Shown here piece after piece: positions 4,613-17,421 of a stretch of 33,578 bases of DNA (within the stretch, counting starts at the first letter, position 1; the number at the start of each line of letters is the position of its first letter). Source of the DNA: Hadesarchaea archaeon. GTDB taxonomy: Archaea; Hadarchaeota; Hadarchaeia; Hadarchaeales; Hadarchaeaceae. The notes beneath the pieces are model-generated. The model ran no database searches, had not been told where the DNA came from, and worked only from the letters and a program-made list of their open reading frames with translations. Made by a program: the position numbers and the translations under genes. The stretch spans positions 1-33,578 of the forward strand of contig DAOUSU010000002.1 in NCBI GenBank assembly GCA_030627035.1, written 5' to 3'.

Positions 4613-4681
4613 GGCACGTCAGTCCGCCCATCATCCCGTCATCGCGAAGCTCAGACGATATTAATTAACATCATCCGTGCC
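4613..4681 (-). ncRNA. Candidate C/D-box sRNA (copy B)
   Basis: The minus-strand RNA reads GGCACG-G-AUGAUGU-UAAUUAAUAUCGU-CUGA-GCUUCGC-GAUGA-CGGGA-UGAUGGGCGGA-CUGA-CGUGCC. It has a perfect 6-bp terminal stem flanking box C and box D with canonical kink-turn geometry. The internal D' CUGA and C' cGAUGA can form a K-loop. The D guide is identical to copy A. A TTTTTAC run lies about 23 nt upstream. Confidence 0.6.
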
Positions 4682-4772
4682 AATTTAGTTCAGCTTTTGT
4701 CAAGTAAAAACGTTGAGGTTGAGAAGAAAGAAGAAAGCAGTTTTTATCTAACTTTTCTGATTAGTAAAGCGT

Positions 4773-5984
4773 TCATCCAAACATCCGCTCGGGCTTCGGT
4801 GTCTTTGGAATCTTGGCCGGAGGCAGAACCTTCGCTATCGCCAGATCGAAGTCGGCTCGCTCCACCCTCCCGCGTCCCTCGCGGATCGCAAACATCCCCG
4901 CCTCGGTGCAGATCGCCTTGATATCGGCTCCCGTTGCCCGGTCCGTCCGCTTCGCGAGTTCCTTCGCATCCACGTTCTTCGTCACGTTCATCCCCTTCAT
5001 GTGGATGTTGAAGATGATGGCTCGCGCCTCTTCGTTCGGGAGGGGGAAGTGGATTAGCCTGTCGAAGCGCCTAGGGCGAAGCAGGGCTGGGTCCAGGATG
5101 TCAGGGCGATTGGTCGCGGCCAAGATCTTGATGTCACCGCGTGGGTCAAATCCGTCGACCTCCGCCAGCAACTGCACGAGGGTGCGGTGGACCTCCCGAT
5201 CGCCGCTCGTGGATGCATCAAGGCGGCGGGCAGCGATCGCGTCGAGCTCGTCGATGAACACGATGCTCGGCGTCTTCTCGCGGGCCAGCTCGAACATCTC
5301 ACGCACCATCCGGGCCCCCTCGCCTATGTATTTCTGCACGAGCTCCGAGCCTATCACCCGGATGAAGGTTGCTCGAGTTTCGTGGGCAACCGCCCTAGCG
5401 AGCAAGGTTTTCCCGGTCCCGGGGGCGCCATAGAGGAGCACCCCCTTCGGGGGCTCGATGCCCACCTTCTTGAAAAGTTCGGGCTTCAGCAGCGGGAGTT
5501 CCACGCTCTCTCGAATTTCCTGAATCTGTTCCGCGAGCCCACCAACATCCGCATAGCTGACCTCCGGCGCCTCCTCGATCTCCATCCCGAGCACGAGCGG
5601 GTCCTTTTTCGATGGCAATATCTCCATTATGCTGAGATTTCGCTGGTTGAGCGCCACCCGCACGCCCGGCTTGAGCTGCTCCGGTTTGATGAGCTGTGGC
5701 ACGTTTACGACGAAATGGGGTCCGGTGCTGCTCCTAACGACCGCGCGCCCATCCGCCAGCGTATCTAGCAAAGTGGCAGCGACCAATGGCGGCGCGCGCA
5801 TCCGCTCGAACTCGGCGCGGAGGCTTCGAAGCTCGCGATCTATGTGCAGAGATCGACTCTCGAGCGAGCGCTTCTCGCGCTCCAGCTCACGGACGCGATT
5901 TTCCAGACTGTGGATGTAATCCGTAACATAGCTCTCGCCAAAAGCGTTTGCCCTCGGTTCCTTGGGTTTAGCTGCACCCGACAA
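4773..5984 (-). CDS. pan: Proteasome-activating nucleotidase (PAN), AAA+ ATPase
   Basis: 403 aa. The N-terminus is coiled-coil-like ([35 protein letters not shown]). Walker A is GAPGTGKT and Walker B is IVFIDELD, followed by an Rpt/PAN-type AAA module. Confidence 0.92.
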
Positions 5985-6056: not shown

Positions 6057-7820
6057 CTAATGCCCCCGCCAAATCCAGTAGGCGACCAAACCGATCGCAA
6101 CTATCGCTCCCGCAACGAGTAAAAATGGCAACAGTTTTTCCCAGTCGATGAAAATCCCCTCCTCGCTCGGAGGCTTTCCGAGGGCAATGATAACGATGTT
6201 GGCATGTTGGATCGCGTCTTGGGCCAGCCGAATTGCATCCGCATCGCTTGCCATCTGCGCCTGTGCGAGCTCCGCGCGCGCAAGTTTGAGCTTCTGGTAC
6301 AAAGTTTCCATATTCTCGGATGCAAGCATTCCGTCCGCCCGGTCGATCGCCAGCTTCCCAGCTTGAATGAATGCCTGTGCGGCTTCGGGATTCGTGAGCA
6401 CAACGAGGTTCTCCTCCTCACCCACACTTGGTTGGCTATCCCGCCACTTGTACTCCGAGGCGGATTCGGATGAACTCAAACCGCGGACATTCCGAAGCAG
6501 ATGGATCGGGTCGAGCTTGAACAGGTAGTCGCCTGATGGTTTGGCCCAAGTCGGATCGGCTGGCTGCCACCCCTTACCCGGCAAATAGAACTCAACCCAC
6601 GCGTGACCGATGAATTTCTCCTCGTGGTACCCCCAGCCGAAATCGATGCGCGCCGGCAGGCCAACAGCTCGGCTTAAGGCGATCGTGAGGTCGCTGAAGC
6701 AATCGCAGTCCCCGGCTCCGGTGAGGAGGGTTCGGAGCGCCCCCTTTCGCTGCGGGGTGACCTCGTAACTGATGTAACTGCTAACGAATTCGACTATTCG
6801 CTCCGCCACGCGATAGGTGTTGGTTTCACCTCCAACTACCTCCTTGGCCCTCTGTTGGATGCTTGGATCATCGACCTCCCAGTACTCGTCCGCCTTCAGA
6901 TAGGGCGAGAGTTCTGCAGGCACCTCGGCCAATGTACCGACCTGGTCATCGGTAATATCGGGCAAGTAAACGATCTCGGAGAAGACGAGCTTGATGTTCA
7001 AATCCCGGCTTTCACCCGGCTGTAGGTCGCCAATTTCGAACACTCCATGCCAGTTGTTTTCGTTATCCACGTACATGGTTTCGATCGGCAGGCCGGACCA
7101 CTCAAGGGCGGCGAACTGCGATTGACTGTGGGAGAACAAAATCGTGTCGAGGAGGATGGTTTTGGAGTCCCTAGCCCCCGGGTTGCTGAAGTGCTCGGTT
7201 AGGGTGAGCTTGTAGTAAACTGGTTGCAAATAAAATCTTGTTTCTAGTCCATCGAAACTTCCTGGGGCGCTGACGCTTGTTTCATACTGGACGGTGGGCG
7301 GGTCGTTCTCCGAAAGCTGGGCTTTGTCCGGATTTTTCAGAAAAAGCGTTGAACCAGCGGGGCCCCGAATCCTCACGATGTATCTATGGCAAGGGAACCC
7401 ATCCGCATCCAGAGAGATCCCCCCAAATCTGCCCACATAGCTAGGGCCGGTTCCAGAGACCAAATCGCTGGCGTCATAAGAGATGTGATACGTCACTCTG
7501 GTTTTACCGCGAAGCGTGAAGCGGACCGTGATCTTCGTCTTTCCGAGAGGTCTATCTACATTGTAGCTCAGATTCCCCGCGTCGCCACAAACGTTGACGT
7601 TGGTGGTGTTCTCTGTTGGGATAATGCGCGTGATCGTGTAGGAAGAAGTTGCCCAAGATGGGCCAGGGTTATAGAGGGTGTAATTCTCGCTGGCGCCGAT
7701 GGTTCGATCCAGATTGATGTTGTAACTCAACTCCACAAGCTCGTAATATGCGGTCGCTGGCCGTGCACTGGCCGGCGCCGCCGTGGCCATCACGAGCACG
7801 ACCAATAACACAAGCAGCAT
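6057..7820 (-). CDS. Transglutaminase-like domain protein with a signal peptide and a C-terminal membrane anchor
   Basis: Transglutaminase core Cys-His-Asp context: GAGDCDCFSDLTIALSRAVGLPAR ... IGHAWVEFY ... GWQPADPT. ATG 7820 gives the signal-like N-terminus MLLVLLVVLVMATAAPASA. The C-terminal TM segment is LLPFLLVAGAIVAIGLVAYWIW. The track's start at 7931 would overlap hflX. Confidence 0.8.
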   Translation of the reverse strand: MLLVLLVVLVMATAAPASARPATAYYELVELSYNINLDRTIGASENYTLYNPGPSWATSSYTITRIIPTENTTNVNVCGDAGNLSYNVDRPLGKTKITVRFTLRGKTRVTYHISYDASDLVSGTGPSYVGRFGGISLDADGFPCHRYIVRIRGPAGSTLFLKNPDKAQLSENDPPTVQYETSVSAPGSFDGLETRFYLQPVYYKLTLTEHFSNPGARDSKTILLDTILFSHSQSQFAALEWSGLPIETMYVDNENNWHGVFEIGDLQPGESRDLNIKLVFSEIVYLPDITDDQVGTLAEVPAELSPYLKADEYWEVDDPSIQQRAKEVVGGETNTYRVAERIVEFVSSYISYEVTPQRKGALRTLLTGAGDCDCFSDLTIALSRAVGLPARIDFGWGYHEEKFIGHAWVEFYLPGKGWQPADPTWAKPSGDYLFKLDPIHLLRNVRGLSSSESASEYKWRDSQPSVGEEENLVVLTNPEAAQAFIQAGKLAIDRADGMLASENMETLYQKLKLARAELAQAQMASDADAIRLAQDAIQHANIVIIALGKPPSEEGIFIDWEKLLPFLLVAGAIVAIGLVAYWIWRGH

Positions 7821-9116: not shown

Positions 9117-9656
9117 ATGGGCAAAAAACGTGGGGGTGCAAAGGCCCAACAAAAGCCGCTTGAAGATCCCGTTTTGAGGGGGATCATAATGGGGATAGGC
9201 GGTGAACGTGGATACGAGATAGCGAAGCTTCTGGCCAAGGAGGAGCTAACCGATGACGAGCTTGCGAAAAAGATCGAGATCCGCGTGAACCTCGTCCGAA
9301 GGATCCTCTATGACCTCTATGAGAACCGCGTGGTAAGCTACCGCAGGGTCCGGGACGAACACAGCGGGTGGTACATTTACTACTGGCGGATCGATCCGGA
9401 GCGGGCGGTTGGGTACTTCAATGAAAACAAGCGCCTCCTCCTGCAAAAGCTTGAGAAGCGCCTGGAAGTGGAGCGCAGCGCGATGTTTTTCGGGTGTCAG
9501 GAGGGTTGCCCCAAGCTCCCATTCGAGCTCGCGGCCGAGAACGACTTCAAGTGTCCGCGGTGCAACGGGAAGCTTGAGCCCTATGATAACTCGAACGTGA
9601 TCAAGGCCCTCGAGCGGCAGATAGAATCGCTTCGACAGCAACTCGTGGGGAGTTAA
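9117..9656 (+). CDS. tfe: Transcription factor E (TFE, TFIIE-alpha homolog)
   Basis: Winged-helix N-terminal half plus a zinc ribbon (CQEGCPKLPFELAAENDFKCPRCNGKL). ATG 9117 is preceded by CAGGTGG 6 nt upstream. TATA-like AATTTTAT and ATAATTATA lie at 9067-9098. The track start is GTG 9108. Confidence 0.85.
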   Translation: MGKKRGGAKAQQKPLEDPVLRGIIMGIGGERGYEIAKLLAKEELTDDELAKKIEIRVNLVRRILYDLYENRVVSYRRVRDEHSGWYIYYWRIDPERAVGYFNENKRLLLQKLEKRLEVERSAMFFGCQEGCPKLPFELAAENDFKCPRCNGKLEPYDNSNVIKALERQIESLRQQLVGS

Positions 9657-10171
9657 TGTTCAGGCGTGAGGATGCGCTGCGCGTGCTGCGCGAGGTCGGT
9701 TGTTCGAGGGAAGTCATCCAGCATTGTCTTGCCGTCGAGCGGATTTCTCTAAGACTCGCCCGGCGAATTCGCGCTAATGGCAACAAGCTCGACCTGAGGC
9801 TCGTAAGTCTGGGCGCGTTGCTGCACGACATCGGGAGGGCACGGACACATGACATCCGGCACGGTGTAGAGGGGGGCAAAATTCTTCGTGAACTCCGTCT
9901 GACCGATTTTGTCAATTTTGCCGAACGCCACCTCGGCGCGGGCATCACCGCTGTAGAGGCAAAAGATCTTGGATTGCCCGAGCGGGATTTTGTGCCAAAA
10001 ACGCTTGAGGAAAAGATTGTCGCATACGCAGACAAGCTCGTGATGGGCGAGCGGGGCGCATCGTACGAAGAGGCCCTAAAGTGGTTCAGATCTGAGCTCC
10101 GGCCGACTCACCCCGCCATCAAACGTTTTGAGGCTCTTCATATGGAGATCCAAAGGTTGTTGGGTAAATGA
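9656..10171 (+). CDS. HD-domain metal-dependent phosphohydrolase
   Basis: 171 aa with the HD motif (ALLHDIGRARTHDIRHGVEGG). The start ATG overlaps the tfe stop by 1 nt (TAATG), so the two genes are probably co-transcribed. Confidence 0.8.
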   Translation: MFRREDALRVLREVGCSREVIQHCLAVERISLRLARRIRANGNKLDLRLVSLGALLHDIGRARTHDIRHGVEGGKILRELRLTDFVNFAERHLGAGITAVEAKDLGLPERDFVPKTLEEKIVAYADKLVMGERGASYEEALKWFRSELRPTHPAIKRFEALHMEIQRLLGK

Positions 10172-10289
10172 TGGTGGGCCCGCCGAGATTCGAACTCGAG
10201 TTCTCACCGAACCCAGACACCTTGTGAGGGTGATGTTTGTTAGGGAAGGGAAGGCACCCTTACCCTCTTAACCACTGGACCACGGGCCC
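10172..10289 (-). tRNA. tRNA-Val(CAC) with two introns (30 nt at 10237-10266 in the D-arm; 13 nt at 10210-10222 at canonical 37/38) and an encoded CCA
   Basis: The minus strand reads GGGCCCGTGGTCCAGTGGTTAAG[AGGGTAAGGGTGCCTTCCCTTCCCTAACAA]ACATCACCCTCACA[AGGTGTCTGGGTT]CGGTGAGAACTCGAGTTCGAATCTCGGCGGGCCCACCA. Removing the bracketed segments gives a 75-nt cloverleaf: 7-bp acceptor GGGCCCG/CGGGCCC, U8, A14, G15-C48, GG in the D loop, anticodon arm TCACC-CUCACAC-GGTGA, and T arm TCGAG-TTCGAAT-CTCGG. Both introns sit in bulge-helix-bulge motifs (details in findings). Confidence 0.85.
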
Positions 10290-10310
10290 AGTAAAATTTT
10301 GGTAGCGCGG

Positions 10311-10324
10311 TATTAAACTTTTAG
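10311..10324 (-). promoter_or_regulatory. Candidate BRE/TATA promoter of tRNA-Val
   Basis: The minus strand reads CTAAAAGTTTAATA. The TTTAATA element ends 21 nt upstream of tRNA position 1, which fits the archaeal TATA spacing of about -26. Confidence 0.5.
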
Positions 10325-10602
10325 AAACCGGGCGCTCAGTTGCAGCTACGCTATGCCCAAATCGACCGACAGGCGTTTGCCCCTTCCCTGCCGAGTTCCA
10401 CGAGTTCCCGCTCGGATCTTTCCTCCGCTGGAGGTCCTGCACCCGCTTCACCTGTCCATCTTCTTGCCCCCAGCCAATGTGTCTCGCCATCGGGGAAATG
10501 GGACGGTTTTAGGATGTACATAATTGTACTAAAAAGGCTTAAATAGACTATCAGGGAAAAAAAGATGGAGGTTTGAGACACGTGCGCCTCAGGGAAATAG
10601 CG

Positions 10603-14574: not shown

Positions 14575-14958
14575 CTATCCAACCCCAACTGTCGCTTCGT
14601 CCGCATTGACGATCAGTTTATCTCCTGTCTTGATCTTGTCGATATCAATTCCGTCGACACAGGGGATCCCAGCCAGAATGACTCCCGTCGCCACAACCGT
14701 TTCCGTTTCCTTATTCACGATCGCTGCAGGAGCAACTCCATTTCGCTTCATCCCATAAATCACGTATGACCCTACAGTGGAGCCCTTTCCCTGCGGAAAA
14801 ACTAGGATTTTCTCCTTAACCGATTGCCCTTCAAGCTCGTGCCCCTTCTCAATCACGACGCCGGTCTTGGGGTCGATTCCGCCGTAGAACCCTATCGGCT
14901 CCTTTGAAACAATCGCCTCGCCCTCTGCTTTTCCTGGACTGATCATGCGACCCTTCAC
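14575..14958 (-). CDS. Aconitase X swivel-domain protein (DUF126); putative phosphomevalonate dehydratase small subunit
   Basis: 127 aa with an AcnX small-subunit pattern (GEAIVSKEPIGFYGGIDPKTGVV...KILVFPQGKGSTVGSYVIY). Overlaps the stop of the large subunit by 4 nt. Confidence 0.82.
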   Translation of the reverse strand: MKGRMISPGKAEGEAIVSKEPIGFYGGIDPKTGVVIEKGHELEGQSVKEKILVFPQGKGSTVGSYVIYGMKRNGVAPAAIVNKETETVVATGVILAGIPCVDGIDIDKIKTGDKLIVNADEATVGVG

Positions 14959-16142
14959 GCAAGCACCTTCTTTAACAGCTCATTCACGTTGCCAAAAATT
15001 ACCTCCTGTTTACAGAAGCCTGGCAGGTAGTTGGCCGCCTTTCCAGAATTCACAGCCGTACGCTTGAAACCCATGCGTTCGATCGGCGAAACCACAGCGC
15101 AGGTGTCTGCAACAACTTTCCCCCCAGCTCGCTCAACCTGCTCGACAAATCCAAGTTTCGTGGCTGTTTCCTTGGTCGTGCGTGCGGTGCAAATCCAAAG
15201 CGGCTTTCGCAACCGCTTTCCTTCGAGCTTGTTCGCCAGAGTTGCGATCTCCTTCAACGAGGCGTGGGGGCAGCCGAGGATGACGATATCTGGTTCTCGC
15301 CCGGTGTTGAGCTTCTCGCAAGTTTCCTTTAACTCACGTTCCCCAACCTCGATCACCTCGAGGTTTTTAGGATCCATGAGACGAGCCTCCGGTGTCAGGC
15401 CCTCCACGTGATAAAGGGCGACAGCCCCCGACGCCGCCATCGCTGCTCCGAACGCCTTCAGCTGGTCGACATCCGCACCCTTGATCCCTTGAAAGTACGG
15501 ATTTCCTTTCTTGACCAGCTTCCCGACGTGGTAGCCCAAGGCGCCGAAATCCGAGTTGTGTTTCAGCTCGGCGTTAACTTTCACCGCCACGCTCGGCTTC
15601 CGGTTCTCGTCTAGGTGCAAGCCATAGTTTGGGGTCACCCCGCAGAGCGCTGCGGCTAGCGCAGATGGCCCACCCTCGCGGTTCGTGCGCGCACCTATCA
15701 CAGAGTTTGCGAATGAAACCGCCGACGACTCGGACCACGCGATGTGCTCTCCGAAACGCGGGAGATTACCGACTAGGTAGGGGGTGCAAGTCGCAGTCAT
15801 CATTATCCCCATTTTTTTGAATGCCTCCATTATGCACAGCTGCTTTTTGGCGAAATCCTCGGGGAACCCCAATTCCCTCCAGTCCACGAGATCCATGCCG
15901 GGCGGATTCAAGGTCGTGGGTACTCGGACCTTCGCCCCCTTGCCCGCCATGTCCTCCAAGAACTCTAGCCCGGGATCGCCTATCGATTTGTAAGAAACGC
16001 CCGCGACCTGAACTGACCCGACTGGAATCATCCGATCGGCGCCGTAGATGTCCCCGAGGCGCACGAGCAAGCGGAACATCCGCTCGAGGACCTCACCCCT
16101 CTCGCCGGCCAGGATTCGCTCTTCCTCCTTCGTTAAATACAC
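14955..16142 (-). CDS. Aconitase X catalytic-domain protein (DUF521); putative phosphomevalonate dehydratase large subunit
   Basis: 395 aa. The N-terminus MYLTKEEERILAGERGEVLERMF and the TLNPPGMDL and CTPYL blocks are typical of DUF521/AcnX large subunits. Its position within an mvk/UbiD operon supports the call. Confidence 0.85.
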   Translation of the reverse strand: MYLTKEEERILAGERGEVLERMFRLLVRLGDIYGADRMIPVGSVQVAGVSYKSIGDPGLEFLEDMAGKGAKVRVPTTLNPPGMDLVDWRELGFPEDFAKKQLCIMEAFKKMGIMMTATCTPYLVGNLPRFGEHIAWSESSAVSFANSVIGARTNREGGPSALAAALCGVTPNYGLHLDENRKPSVAVKVNAELKHNSDFGALGYHVGKLVKKGNPYFQGIKGADVDQLKAFGAAMAASGAVALYHVEGLTPEARLMDPKNLEVIEVGERELKETCEKLNTGREPDIVILGCPHASLKEIATLANKLEGKRLRKPLWICTARTTKETATKLGFVEQVERAGGKVVADTCAVVSPIERMGFKRTAVNSGKAANYLPGFCKQEVIFGNVNELLKKVLA

Positions 16143-16146
16143 ACGA

Positions 16147-17421
16147 TCACTCCAGGTAGTCTTTCAACTCAAGTTTCAATGGGAGTTCTGGCTTTTTGAA
16201 ATCCTTGGGATCGCGCCCGCTCGGTATGGTCAAGTCGAATCCCATTTTGGTCGTCATGCGCGTCTCGAGTTCCGATGAGGGATCGAGGGATGAGCCCTTC
16301 TCGCGTTTGATGACGAGGTCTCGATCGCCCTGAAACCTTGTCGCCATCGCCCACTCGATCTCATTCGGGTCATGGATGTTGATATCGTCATCGACCACCC
16401 ACACGTGCTTCAGCGACTTGTGCCCCTTGAACGCTGCCTCTATCGCTTTTCGCCCATCATCTGGGTTTCTCTTCTTTATGCTCACCGCAGCGTGTAGCCA
16501 GGAGCAACCCCCCGGGGTTATCAGCACATCCTTGCACTCACAGACCTTGCTCACCTCGCGGAATATCGTCGGCTCTCGGGGCATGCCCATAAGAATTTTG
16601 TGCTCCAGACCACCCGGGAGTAACGCGTGATAAATGGGATCCTTCTTCACGAATATCCTCTTCACCCTTGCCACCCGCTGCTTTCGCACGATGTCGGGAG
16701 TTTCCGTCAGATCAAGAAATGGGCCCTCATCGTGCTCCTCGCCGGTCATCTCTGCGATCATGATTATTTCAGACCGGGGGACCTTATGGCCCGCCAGATC
16801 CATCAGATCAGTTTCCGATAGGGCGTTTGCTATGCTCAGCTCGCTCCTCCCCAGTTCTGCCGAGACCGCAGATGCCACCAAGACCGGCATAGAATTCCCT
16901 ATGCAGATCGCGAACTCTTTATTCCCGCGCCTCAAGAATTCGTCGAAATGTCGTGGGAGTATTCGAATCACGAGCCTGTCTTTTCCTATAACCATCATCC
17001 GTTGATACGAGGCGTTGAGGCCGAGTTCGGGGTCGCTCGCGACAACGACGCCGGAGGAGATGTAGGGCCCCCCGTCGATTGGATAGTGAGTCAGAATTGG
17101 AATCTTCGTGAGGTCGACGTCCATTTCCCCATAACCCTCCGCTTTCACCACCCGCGGCTCCTTCGGGTGATCGATTGCATCGGCCAGTTTGCTTATGATC
17201 TCCTCTTTCTTTATTCCCAGACCTATTGCGATCAACTCGCGCGAGGAGCACAGGTTCGCCACCACGGGCATCGAGAAACCCTTGACCCGCTCAAATAGGA
17301 TCGGCCTTCCGTCGAGGAGCTTCATCAGAGTTGCAATCTCGTATTTGACGTCAACTGGGCGCTTGATTTTTATCAAGAGCCCCTGCCTGTCCAAAGCATC
17401 GATGAACTCCCGCAAGTTCAC
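16147..17421 (-). CDS. UbiD-family decarboxylase; putative trans-anhydromevalonate 5-phosphate decarboxylase
   Basis: 424 aa with the UbiD-like N-terminus MNLREFIDALDRQGLLIKIKRPVDVKYEIA. It lies between mvk and the AcnX pair with gaps of 2-4 nt. Confidence 0.8.
   Translation of the reverse strand: MNLREFIDALDRQGLLIKIKRPVDVKYEIATLMKLLDGRPILFERVKGFSMPVVANLCSSRELIAIGLGIKKEEIISKLADAIDHPKEPRVVKAEGYGEMDVDLTKIPILTHYPIDGGPYISSGVVVASDPELGLNASYQRMMVIGKDRLVIRILPRHFDEFLRRGNKEFAICIGNSMPVLVASAVSAELGRSELSIANALSETDLMDLAGHKVPRSEIIMIAEMTGEEHDEGPFLDLTETPDIVRKQRVARVKRIFVKKDPIYHALLPGGLEHKILMGMPREPTIFREVSKVCECKDVLITPGGCSWLHAAVSIKKRNPDDGRKAIEAAFKGHKSLKHVWVVDDDINIHDPNEIEWAMATRFQGDRDLVIKREKGSSLDPSSELETRMTTKMGFDLTIPSGRDPKDFKKPELPLKLELKDYLE

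Follow-up and report, generated by a model that had tools for sequence, protein, structure and literature searches.

Multiple-intron tRNA genes of Thermoproteales and other Crenarchaeota were reportedly described by Sugahara et al. in 2007 and 2008. The tRNA-Pro(UGG) gene of Pyrobaculum islandicum has introns at positions 25/26, 37/38 and 56/57 (PMC4090602, PMC4033280), and the non-canonical sites that have been listed, chiefly for Thermoproteales, include 20/21, 22/23, 25/26 and others (PMC4090602). In Methanopyrus kandleri, according to the text of a study of archaeal splicing, pre-tRNA-Glu(UUC) combines a D-loop intron with a canonical intron and the splicing endonuclease (EndA) is of the (alpha-beta)2 form (PMC5829648). 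Markedly increased tRNA gene disruption in Hadesarchaea is reported by Kaneta et al. 2018 in Figure 7 and the accompanying text (PMC5829648).

Within a 33,578-nt stretch of DNA from a Hadesarchaea archaeon (the whole stretch analysed, hereafter the window), we found what is very probably, judging from the locus and its relatives, a functional Hadarchaeota gene for tRNA-Val(CAC) with two endonuclease-spliced BHB-type introns. As in the multi-intron genes of Thermoproteales and other Crenarchaeota, short BHB introns occupy a non-canonical site and site 37/38 of a single gene, and the likeness extends to removal by EndA (here predicted), escape from standard gene finders, and intron gain and loss among close relatives. 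The D-arm site of the window gene, 23/24, differs from the 20/21, 22/23 and 25/26 sites among the examples in PMC4090602, and, unlike in the Thermoproteales cases, both Val isoacceptors share this intron site across the Hadarchaeota sampled. The EndA of Hadarchaeota is a single-unit alpha4-type protein, unlike the (alpha-beta)2 enzyme of Crenarchaeota, which has a specific loop. An initial sequence-only reading of the window had regarded multi-intron tRNA genes as a lineage-restricted archaeal trait; the lineage concerned here is Hadarchaeota, not the classic Thermoproteales.

The M. kandleri precursor shares with the window gene a Euryarchaeota-side lineage and the combination of a D-region intron with a 37/38 intron in one molecule, but its D-loop intron is relaxed (HBh') and its canonical intron strict, the reverse of the arrangement in the window gene. 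Like the strict hBHBh' introns of Euryarchaeota, which are cut by alpha4 or alpha'2 EndA (M. jannaschii, PDB 1A79), intron 1 of the window gene has the strict motif; unlike those introns, which lie at 37/38, it carries that motif in the D-arm, and its companion at 37/38 is without h'. The disrupted Hadesarchaea tRNAs of Kaneta et al. 2018 come from the same lineage as the window gene, and the text of that paper gives proportions for one genome (YNP_N21); the window gene, its intron site and the conservation of that site do not appear in that text (PMC5829648).

The gene is 118 nt long with an encoded CCA and occupies positions 10172-10289 on the minus strand; every index (counted from the 5' end of the gene) given in the sequence-only reading proved accurate. 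Exon 1 (index 1-23; 10267-10289) comprises the acceptor 5' strand, U8, G9, the D-stem 5' strand, the D-loop, A22 and G23, and is identical in five other loci (L083, L091, L087, L086 and L081). It is followed by intron 1 (30 nt, index 24-53; 10237-10266), a strict hBHBh' intron between tRNA positions 23 and 24, and by exon 2 (index 54-67; 10223-10236), which runs from A24 to A37 and has the anticodon CAC at 10224-10226. Intron 2 (13 nt, index 68-80; 10210-10222) lies at the canonical 37/38 position with a relaxed motif, and exon 3 (index 81-118; 10172-10209) supplies C38, the anticodon stem 3' strand, a 4-nt variable region, the T-arm (TCGAG/TTCGAAT/CTCGG, with a T-stem like that of Val(TAC) genes in relatives), the acceptor 3' strand, A73 and CCA. 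Since the three exons are contiguous, in order and on one strand, a split or permuted tRNA was rejected.

Removal of index 24-53 and 68-80 leaves exactly the 75-nt product that had been proposed, and ARAGORN calls this spliced 75-mer tRNA-Val(cac), in agreement with the proposed identity, with a normal cloverleaf except for the D-stem, where only three Watson-Crick pairs and a C13.A22 mismatch are present in the mature form. All four stems are paired, the T-stem including one U.G, and U8, A14, G18, G19, U33, T54-C56, A58, A73 and the CCA are intact, as had been claimed for the canonical tertiary positions and the encoded 3' end. The exact boundaries of both introns are corroborated independently by the relatives described below.

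A convergent HD-domain gene (9656-10171, plus strand; PF01966) lies next to the tRNA gene and outside it, and serves as a synteny marker. Its protein is 72-78% identical to those of Hadesarchaea/Hadarchaeota MAGs (78% in Hadesarchaea MAG L001), and the gene order HflX-TFE-HD is common to the window and Hadarchaeota MAGs, identifying the host as a Hadarchaeota (Hadesarchaea) archaeon. The stop codon TGA of this gene (10169-10171) directly abuts the terminal A of the tRNA at 10172, confirming the absence of a spacer noted earlier; in L001, 15 nt separate the two genes, and the zero spacer is thus specific to the window genome. No second copy of the tRNA 3' end, as a possible att repeat, was found in the window with up to three mismatches allowed. 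On the other side, a TATA-like TTTAATA (10311-10317), as read from the sequence, lies 22-28 nt upstream of G1 behind a purine-rich CTAAAAG (10318-10324), and CTAAAAGTTTAATA is conserved upstream of the Val(CAC) genes in L083 and L091. The CTAAAAG-TTTAATA element (10324-10311, minus strand) fits an archaeal BRE/TATA promoter and is a likely, putative promoter of the gene. A 76-aa ORF on the same strand (10260-10490) overlaps the 5' end of the tRNA gene and the promoter region and is most likely spurious.

We found that default tools do not see this gene, as the sequence-only reading had expected of standard gene finders. ARAGORN reported no tRNA on the unspliced window, and Rfam, run on the window at the gathering threshold, gave no match under its default speed filters. 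Once these were loosened to the 'evalue' setting, the Rfam tRNA family RF00005 matched at 35.8 bits (cut-off 29) over 10175-10289 on the minus strand and model positions 1-71, with 33 nt in the D-loop and another 14 nt behind the anticodon arm absorbed as insertions. Related genes fare similarly: ARAGORN labels L001 4529-4625 as tRNA-Gly(ccc) and L002 5361-5451 as tRNA-Cys(aca), and misses L003 2678-2783. Public annotations of these three MAGs may carry the same ARAGORN-type errors.

These blanks would also be expected of a sequence that resembles a tRNA by chance, with accidental BHB-like pairings and no RNA gene behind it, a reading that could draw further on the frequency of the motif itself. 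A generic strict BHB pattern (3+4+3 pairs, G.U allowed) matched 204 times on both strands of the window against 173-214 times in ten shuffles, which is not above chance, so the case rests on the tRNA restored by excision and on comparative data. Both speak against chance: RF00005 scores above its family cut-off once the filters are relaxed, the spliced product is a complete tRNA, and dozens of homologous genes with the same architecture and covariation refute such an origin, to which we assign a negligible probability. Folding was uninformative in this respect. RNAfold does not favour the cloverleaf with two BHB motifs (-37.6 versus a minimum free energy of -47.9 kcal/mol at 37 C) and misses that fold, and thermodynamics therefore weighs neither for nor against it.

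Intron 1 was compared with the strict hBHBh' form, defined by two 3-nt bulges, a 4-bp helix between them, and outer helices h and h' of at least 2 bp. Its central 4-bp helix is formed by G18-U19-U20-A21 with U48-A49-A50-C51 (index numbering), its bulges are A22-G23-A24 and A52-A53-A54, and its inner stem h', of 8 bp with a single bulged U, closes a 6-nt loop (-11.0 kcal/mol alone). The outer helix h consists of U16-A56 and G17-C55, to which G15.U57 can be added, giving 2-3 bp. The sequence-only reading had described this layout with a 3-bp h; the helix, bulges and h' stand, and U57 is used twice, in h and in the anticodon stem. The two pairings are exclusive, so that h has 2 bp when the anticodon stem is formed. 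All elements of the strict form are present nonetheless, and intron 1 is a strict motif that is unusual in position only. Cuts after the second bulge nucleotide restore the D-arm GUCC-AGUGGUUA-AGAC, and the intronless orthologue in L004 has an uninterrupted D-arm, GTCT-AGTGGTTA-TGAC. The 30 nt contain no RUGAUGA or CUGA box, and a C/D-box guide was rejected by eye.

To place this intron among relatives, a pattern scan for D-arm introns gave 12 stretches from species-representative genomes and a further 30 from metagenomes; with the window added, the site holds an intron in 44 loci, among which 27 BHB cores are distinct. These are Hadarchaeota MAG or metagenome genes for tRNA-Val(TAC/CAC), together with one tRNA-Gly (L111) and one Woesearchaeota tRNA-Val (L090). 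As the scan pattern fixed the central helix and the bulges, both are uninformative, which leaves the inner stem and, of the outer helix, its 3' side. Inner stems are between 3 and 9 bp long (for example GGC/GCC, GGG/CCC, GAG/CUC, AGGG/CCCU and UCUCU/GGAGA). Across the three outermost pairs of h', every pair shows double compensatory changes (13 cells), 96.9% of cells in the alignment are paired as opposed to 26-44% when the partner is slid, and the covariation score was reached by none of 500 shuffles. The alignment thus points to homologues of intron 1 in which structure is conserved, and sequence is not, through compensatory changes. ARAGORN calls all 34 of the correctly parsed spliced products tRNA; one further entry is a mis-parse of L116.

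Two of the loci lie further afield, both with the same D-arm site (GGUUA-AGA ... UAAC-AGA-C). L111 (about 7480-7600 of Ga0209541_10000265) is an AT-rich tRNA-Gly(TCC) that also has a 14-nt anticodon-loop intron, and L090 (959-1074) is a tRNA-Val(CAC) in a Woesearchaeota MAG, with a 40-nt intron. The D-arm intron site is thereby confined neither to Hadarchaeota nor to tRNA-Val.

For intron 2, the anticodon stem UCACC/GGUGA serves as the outer helix, the central helix joins C62-U63-C64-A65 to U75-G76-G77-G78, and the bulges are CAA on the 5' side and U79-U80-C81 on the 3' side, around a 6-nt inner loop. Within that loop only G69-C74 can pair, around 4 nt, which bears out the earlier description of a 6-nt loop in place of h'. 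An h' of at least 2 bp, as in the strict form, is absent from intron 2; it has the features of the relaxed hBH/BHL form, namely position 37/38, a 4-bp helix with nucleotides 32-35, and a 3-nt 3' bulge next to the anticodon stem. With h' closing at most one pair, the motif is relaxed and the 5' splice site is effectively in a loop. Homologues of intron 2 occur in nine further genes (L083, L091/L120, L087, L086, L114, L003, L104 and L116), and the two-intron layout of the window gene is found in L083, L091, L087, L086, L114, L003, L104 and L116. Their length is 13 nt in L083, L091, L087 and L114 (CAC) and in L003 and L104 (UAC), 14 nt in L086 and 17 nt in L116, and their central helix uses UGGG, UGAG or UAGG. 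In each of the six distinct homologous introns the inner loop begins and ends with G...C or U...A, a hint that one closing pair may delimit the 5' bulge of intron 2; in L116 there are two pairs.

An alternative parse is available at this site. If only the D-arm segment were an intron and the 13 nt were retained, the product would be an 88-nt tRNA-Val with an anticodon stem CACC/GGUG (index 58-61 with 69-72) and UCUGGGUUCGGUGAGAAC as a long variable region. With the 13 nt left in, this is the parse that ARAGORN and the Rfam tRNA model select, and the RNAfold minimum-free-energy structure pairs CACC with the intronic GGUG. The stem so formed, however, has only four pairs and a U.U mismatch, and tRNA-Val belongs to class I, with its short variable region. 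Relatives argue in the same direction: the inserts of L086, L003, L104 and L116 are without a GGUG copy, and only the intron reading yields a tRNA from them, while in L087 the distal GGUAG covaries with CUACC and the intronic GGUGA does not. The same covariation of the distal strand, GGUAG with CUACC in place of the UCACC/GGUGA of the window, is seen in L086. In the intronless Val(CAC) gene of L081 the loop reads CTCACAC, with GGTAG and then a 4-nt variable region behind it; the loop equals the one predicted for the spliced window gene, including the unusual C38, and likewise L001 equals spliced L003. We therefore regard retention of the 13 nt as highly improbable and keep to the two-intron gene. 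The 13-nt intron of the Val(CAC) clade begins with AGGUG, a copy of the anticodon stem 3' strand that is absent in L086 and in the Val(TAC) introns; it can pair with the anticodon stem 5' strand (CACC), thereby competing with the BHB fold, and raises the question of a local duplication.

Among Hadarchaeota MAGs, a tRNA-Val gene convergent to the HD gene is a recurrent arrangement, with an intronless gene in L004, L006 and L007, a gene with the D-arm intron only in L001, and one with both introns in L003. The tRNA in this slot is Val(TAC) in seven relatives and Val(CAC) in the window. Val(CAC) lies about 500 nt from AcnX-AcnX-UbiD genes in L083 and L081 (L083 873-4327; L081 11-1374), and the homologues of these genes in the window are at 14575-17421, 4.3 kb from the tRNA. 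The promoter flank and the 5' two-thirds of the window tRNA are of Val(CAC) type and nearly identical to L083, and its T-stem, TCGAG/CUCGG, is shared with none of the others in a set of 20 distinct Val(CAC) sequences and corresponds to the CCGAG/CUCGG found in Val(UAC) genes. Together, a Val(CAC)-type 5' part and a Val(UAC)-type T-stem fit a crossover between paralogues in the T-arm region, and from its sequence the window gene appears to be a hybrid between the Val(CAC) and Val(TAC) paralogues at a synteny breakpoint; given the T-stem difference, it may be a recent one. Tentatively, such a recombinant could have received the promoter, both introns, the anticodon arm and the variable region from Val(CAC), and the T-stem and 3' flank with the HD gene from Val(TAC).

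A hybrid of this kind need not be a working gene. It could be a non-functional or decaying product of recombination between Val(TAC) and Val(CAC), with the tRNA-Val(CAC) used by the cell encoded elsewhere, and the Val(TAC)-type T-stem, the placement of Val(CAC) by AcnX in L083 and L081 when the HD-adjacent slot holds Val(TAC) in seven relatives, and the disruption of that slot in L002 can all be read in its favour. Against decay, all four stems pair, the conserved positions and the CCA are intact, both BHB motifs are preserved, and the promoter-like flank is conserved with L083 and L091. Moreover, a crossover in the T-arm would leave a functional tRNA because the acceptor stem is common to both parents. 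We consider decay very unlikely and treat the locus as a functional gene, whether or not it is recombinant.

The slot beside the HD gene differs again in L002 (4529-5451 of JAUWYN010000029.1), where the last 19 nt of a tRNA (AATCTCGGCGGGCCCACCA) remain beside the HD gene, followed by a 263-aa LAGLIDADG homing-endonuclease-like ORF (4627-5418; PF14528, E = 2.5e-10) and then by an intact Val(TAC) gene with a D-arm intron on the minus strand (about 5362-5451). The arrangement resembles a mobile insertion at the 3' end of the tRNA, or a replacement there, and the tRNA-Val/HD locus appears prone to rearrangement. A separate observation concerns L087 (4227-4334 of CAZOUO010000202.1), labelled uncultured Thermotogae bacterium, which holds a two-intron tRNA-Val(CAC) of Hadarchaeota type; an archaeal tRNA in a bacterial bin is probably a case of binning contamination.

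We also considered the endonuclease, the type of which had been raised in the sequence-only reading. The window itself has no EndA gene (Pfam on 30 ORFs), and the type was examined in related genomes. The M. jannaschii EndA sequence was checked against PDB 1A79 and homologues were aligned for a genome scan, with an arginine-rich EndA homologue leading the scan alignment so that Hadarchaeota EndA was reached. Fourteen Hadarchaeota MAG loci (within L138-L169) each have one single-unit EndA, mostly of about 173-180 aa, two ORF calls being longer because they begin further upstream; Pfam scans of three of them (L138, L139 and L151) show PF02778 and PF01974. All 14 align along the length of the M. 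jannaschii alpha4 EndA (1A79) at 39-45% identity, with small N-terminal gaps only and no C-terminal-domain indel, and the catalytic triad Y115, H125 and K156 is conserved. These comparisons indicate that related Hadarchaeota MAGs encode an alpha4-type EndA, and from its lineage the window genome presumably does so too.

In the classical description, alpha4 enzymes are strict and require the full BHB (PMC4090602, PMC4033280). A strict motif such as that of intron 1 is a substrate for any EndA type, whatever its position. Intron 2 is relaxed and, by the classical view, should need a broad-specificity enzyme (PMC4090602, PMC4033280). Kaneta et al. 2018 describe the Hadesarchaea EndA as alpha4 and ascribe its broad specificity to an 'L3' loop, an insertion in the C-terminal region (PMC5829648). 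An L3-like insertion was not seen in the 14 EndA sequences relative to M. jannaschii, and the text of Kaneta et al. does not carry the loop coordinates (PMC5829648); Hadarchaeota are absent from the 2025 EndA structure paper. An alpha4 EndA with no visible specificity insertion would have to process the h'-less intron 2.

The following processing route could account for the locus. Transcription would start from the TATA-like promoter about 25 nt upstream, and in the precursor G18-A21 of the D-loop would pair with the intronic UAAC to form the strict hBHBh', displacing the D-stem, while anticodon-loop nucleotides 32-35 would pair with UGGG of intron 2 beside the anticodon stem. EndA, a single-unit alpha4-type enzyme in this lineage, would cut after the second nucleotide of each 3-nt bulge, and an RtcB-type ligase, as in the known archaeal pathway, would join the three exons into the 75-nt tRNA with its encoded CCA. 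Transcription, cleavage, ligation and the order of intron removal are all steps that we infer. The two-intron gene is supported by the exact restoration of a tRNA, the covariation in relatives, and the match of its junctions to intronless genes; weighing against it are a T-stem unlike all other Val(CAC), the missing h' in intron 2 in a lineage whose EndA shows no specificity insertion, the competing AGGUG pairing, and a fold that is not the minimum-free-energy structure.

Multi-intron tRNAs with non-canonical sites are already well described, disruption of Hadesarchaea tRNAs has been noted at summary level, and the known picture of archaeal tRNA splicing is unchanged by this locus. Modestly new are a D-arm site at 23/24 that is common to both Val isoacceptors across the sampled Hadarchaeota MAGs and metagenome contigs, and its recurrence in DPANN-like contigs. 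The alpha4-type EndA of the lineage shows no obvious insertion. The annotation is corrected for a required tRNA-Val(CAC) that is invisible to default ARAGORN and Rfam and whose relatives are mislabelled tRNA-Gly or tRNA-Cys. If the gene is recombinant, recombination between two intron-bearing tRNA-Val genes would have joined two chromosomal regions and, with the LAGLIDADG insertion in L002, would make the tRNA-Val locus a rearrangement hotspot. The relatives with none, one or both introns form a small natural set for intron gain and loss. The locus adds a well-documented case, conserved in the Hadarchaeota MAGs sampled, of non-canonical and multiple tRNA introns beyond the lineages with heteromeric endonucleases, and bears on the co-evolution of endonuclease architecture and intron type.
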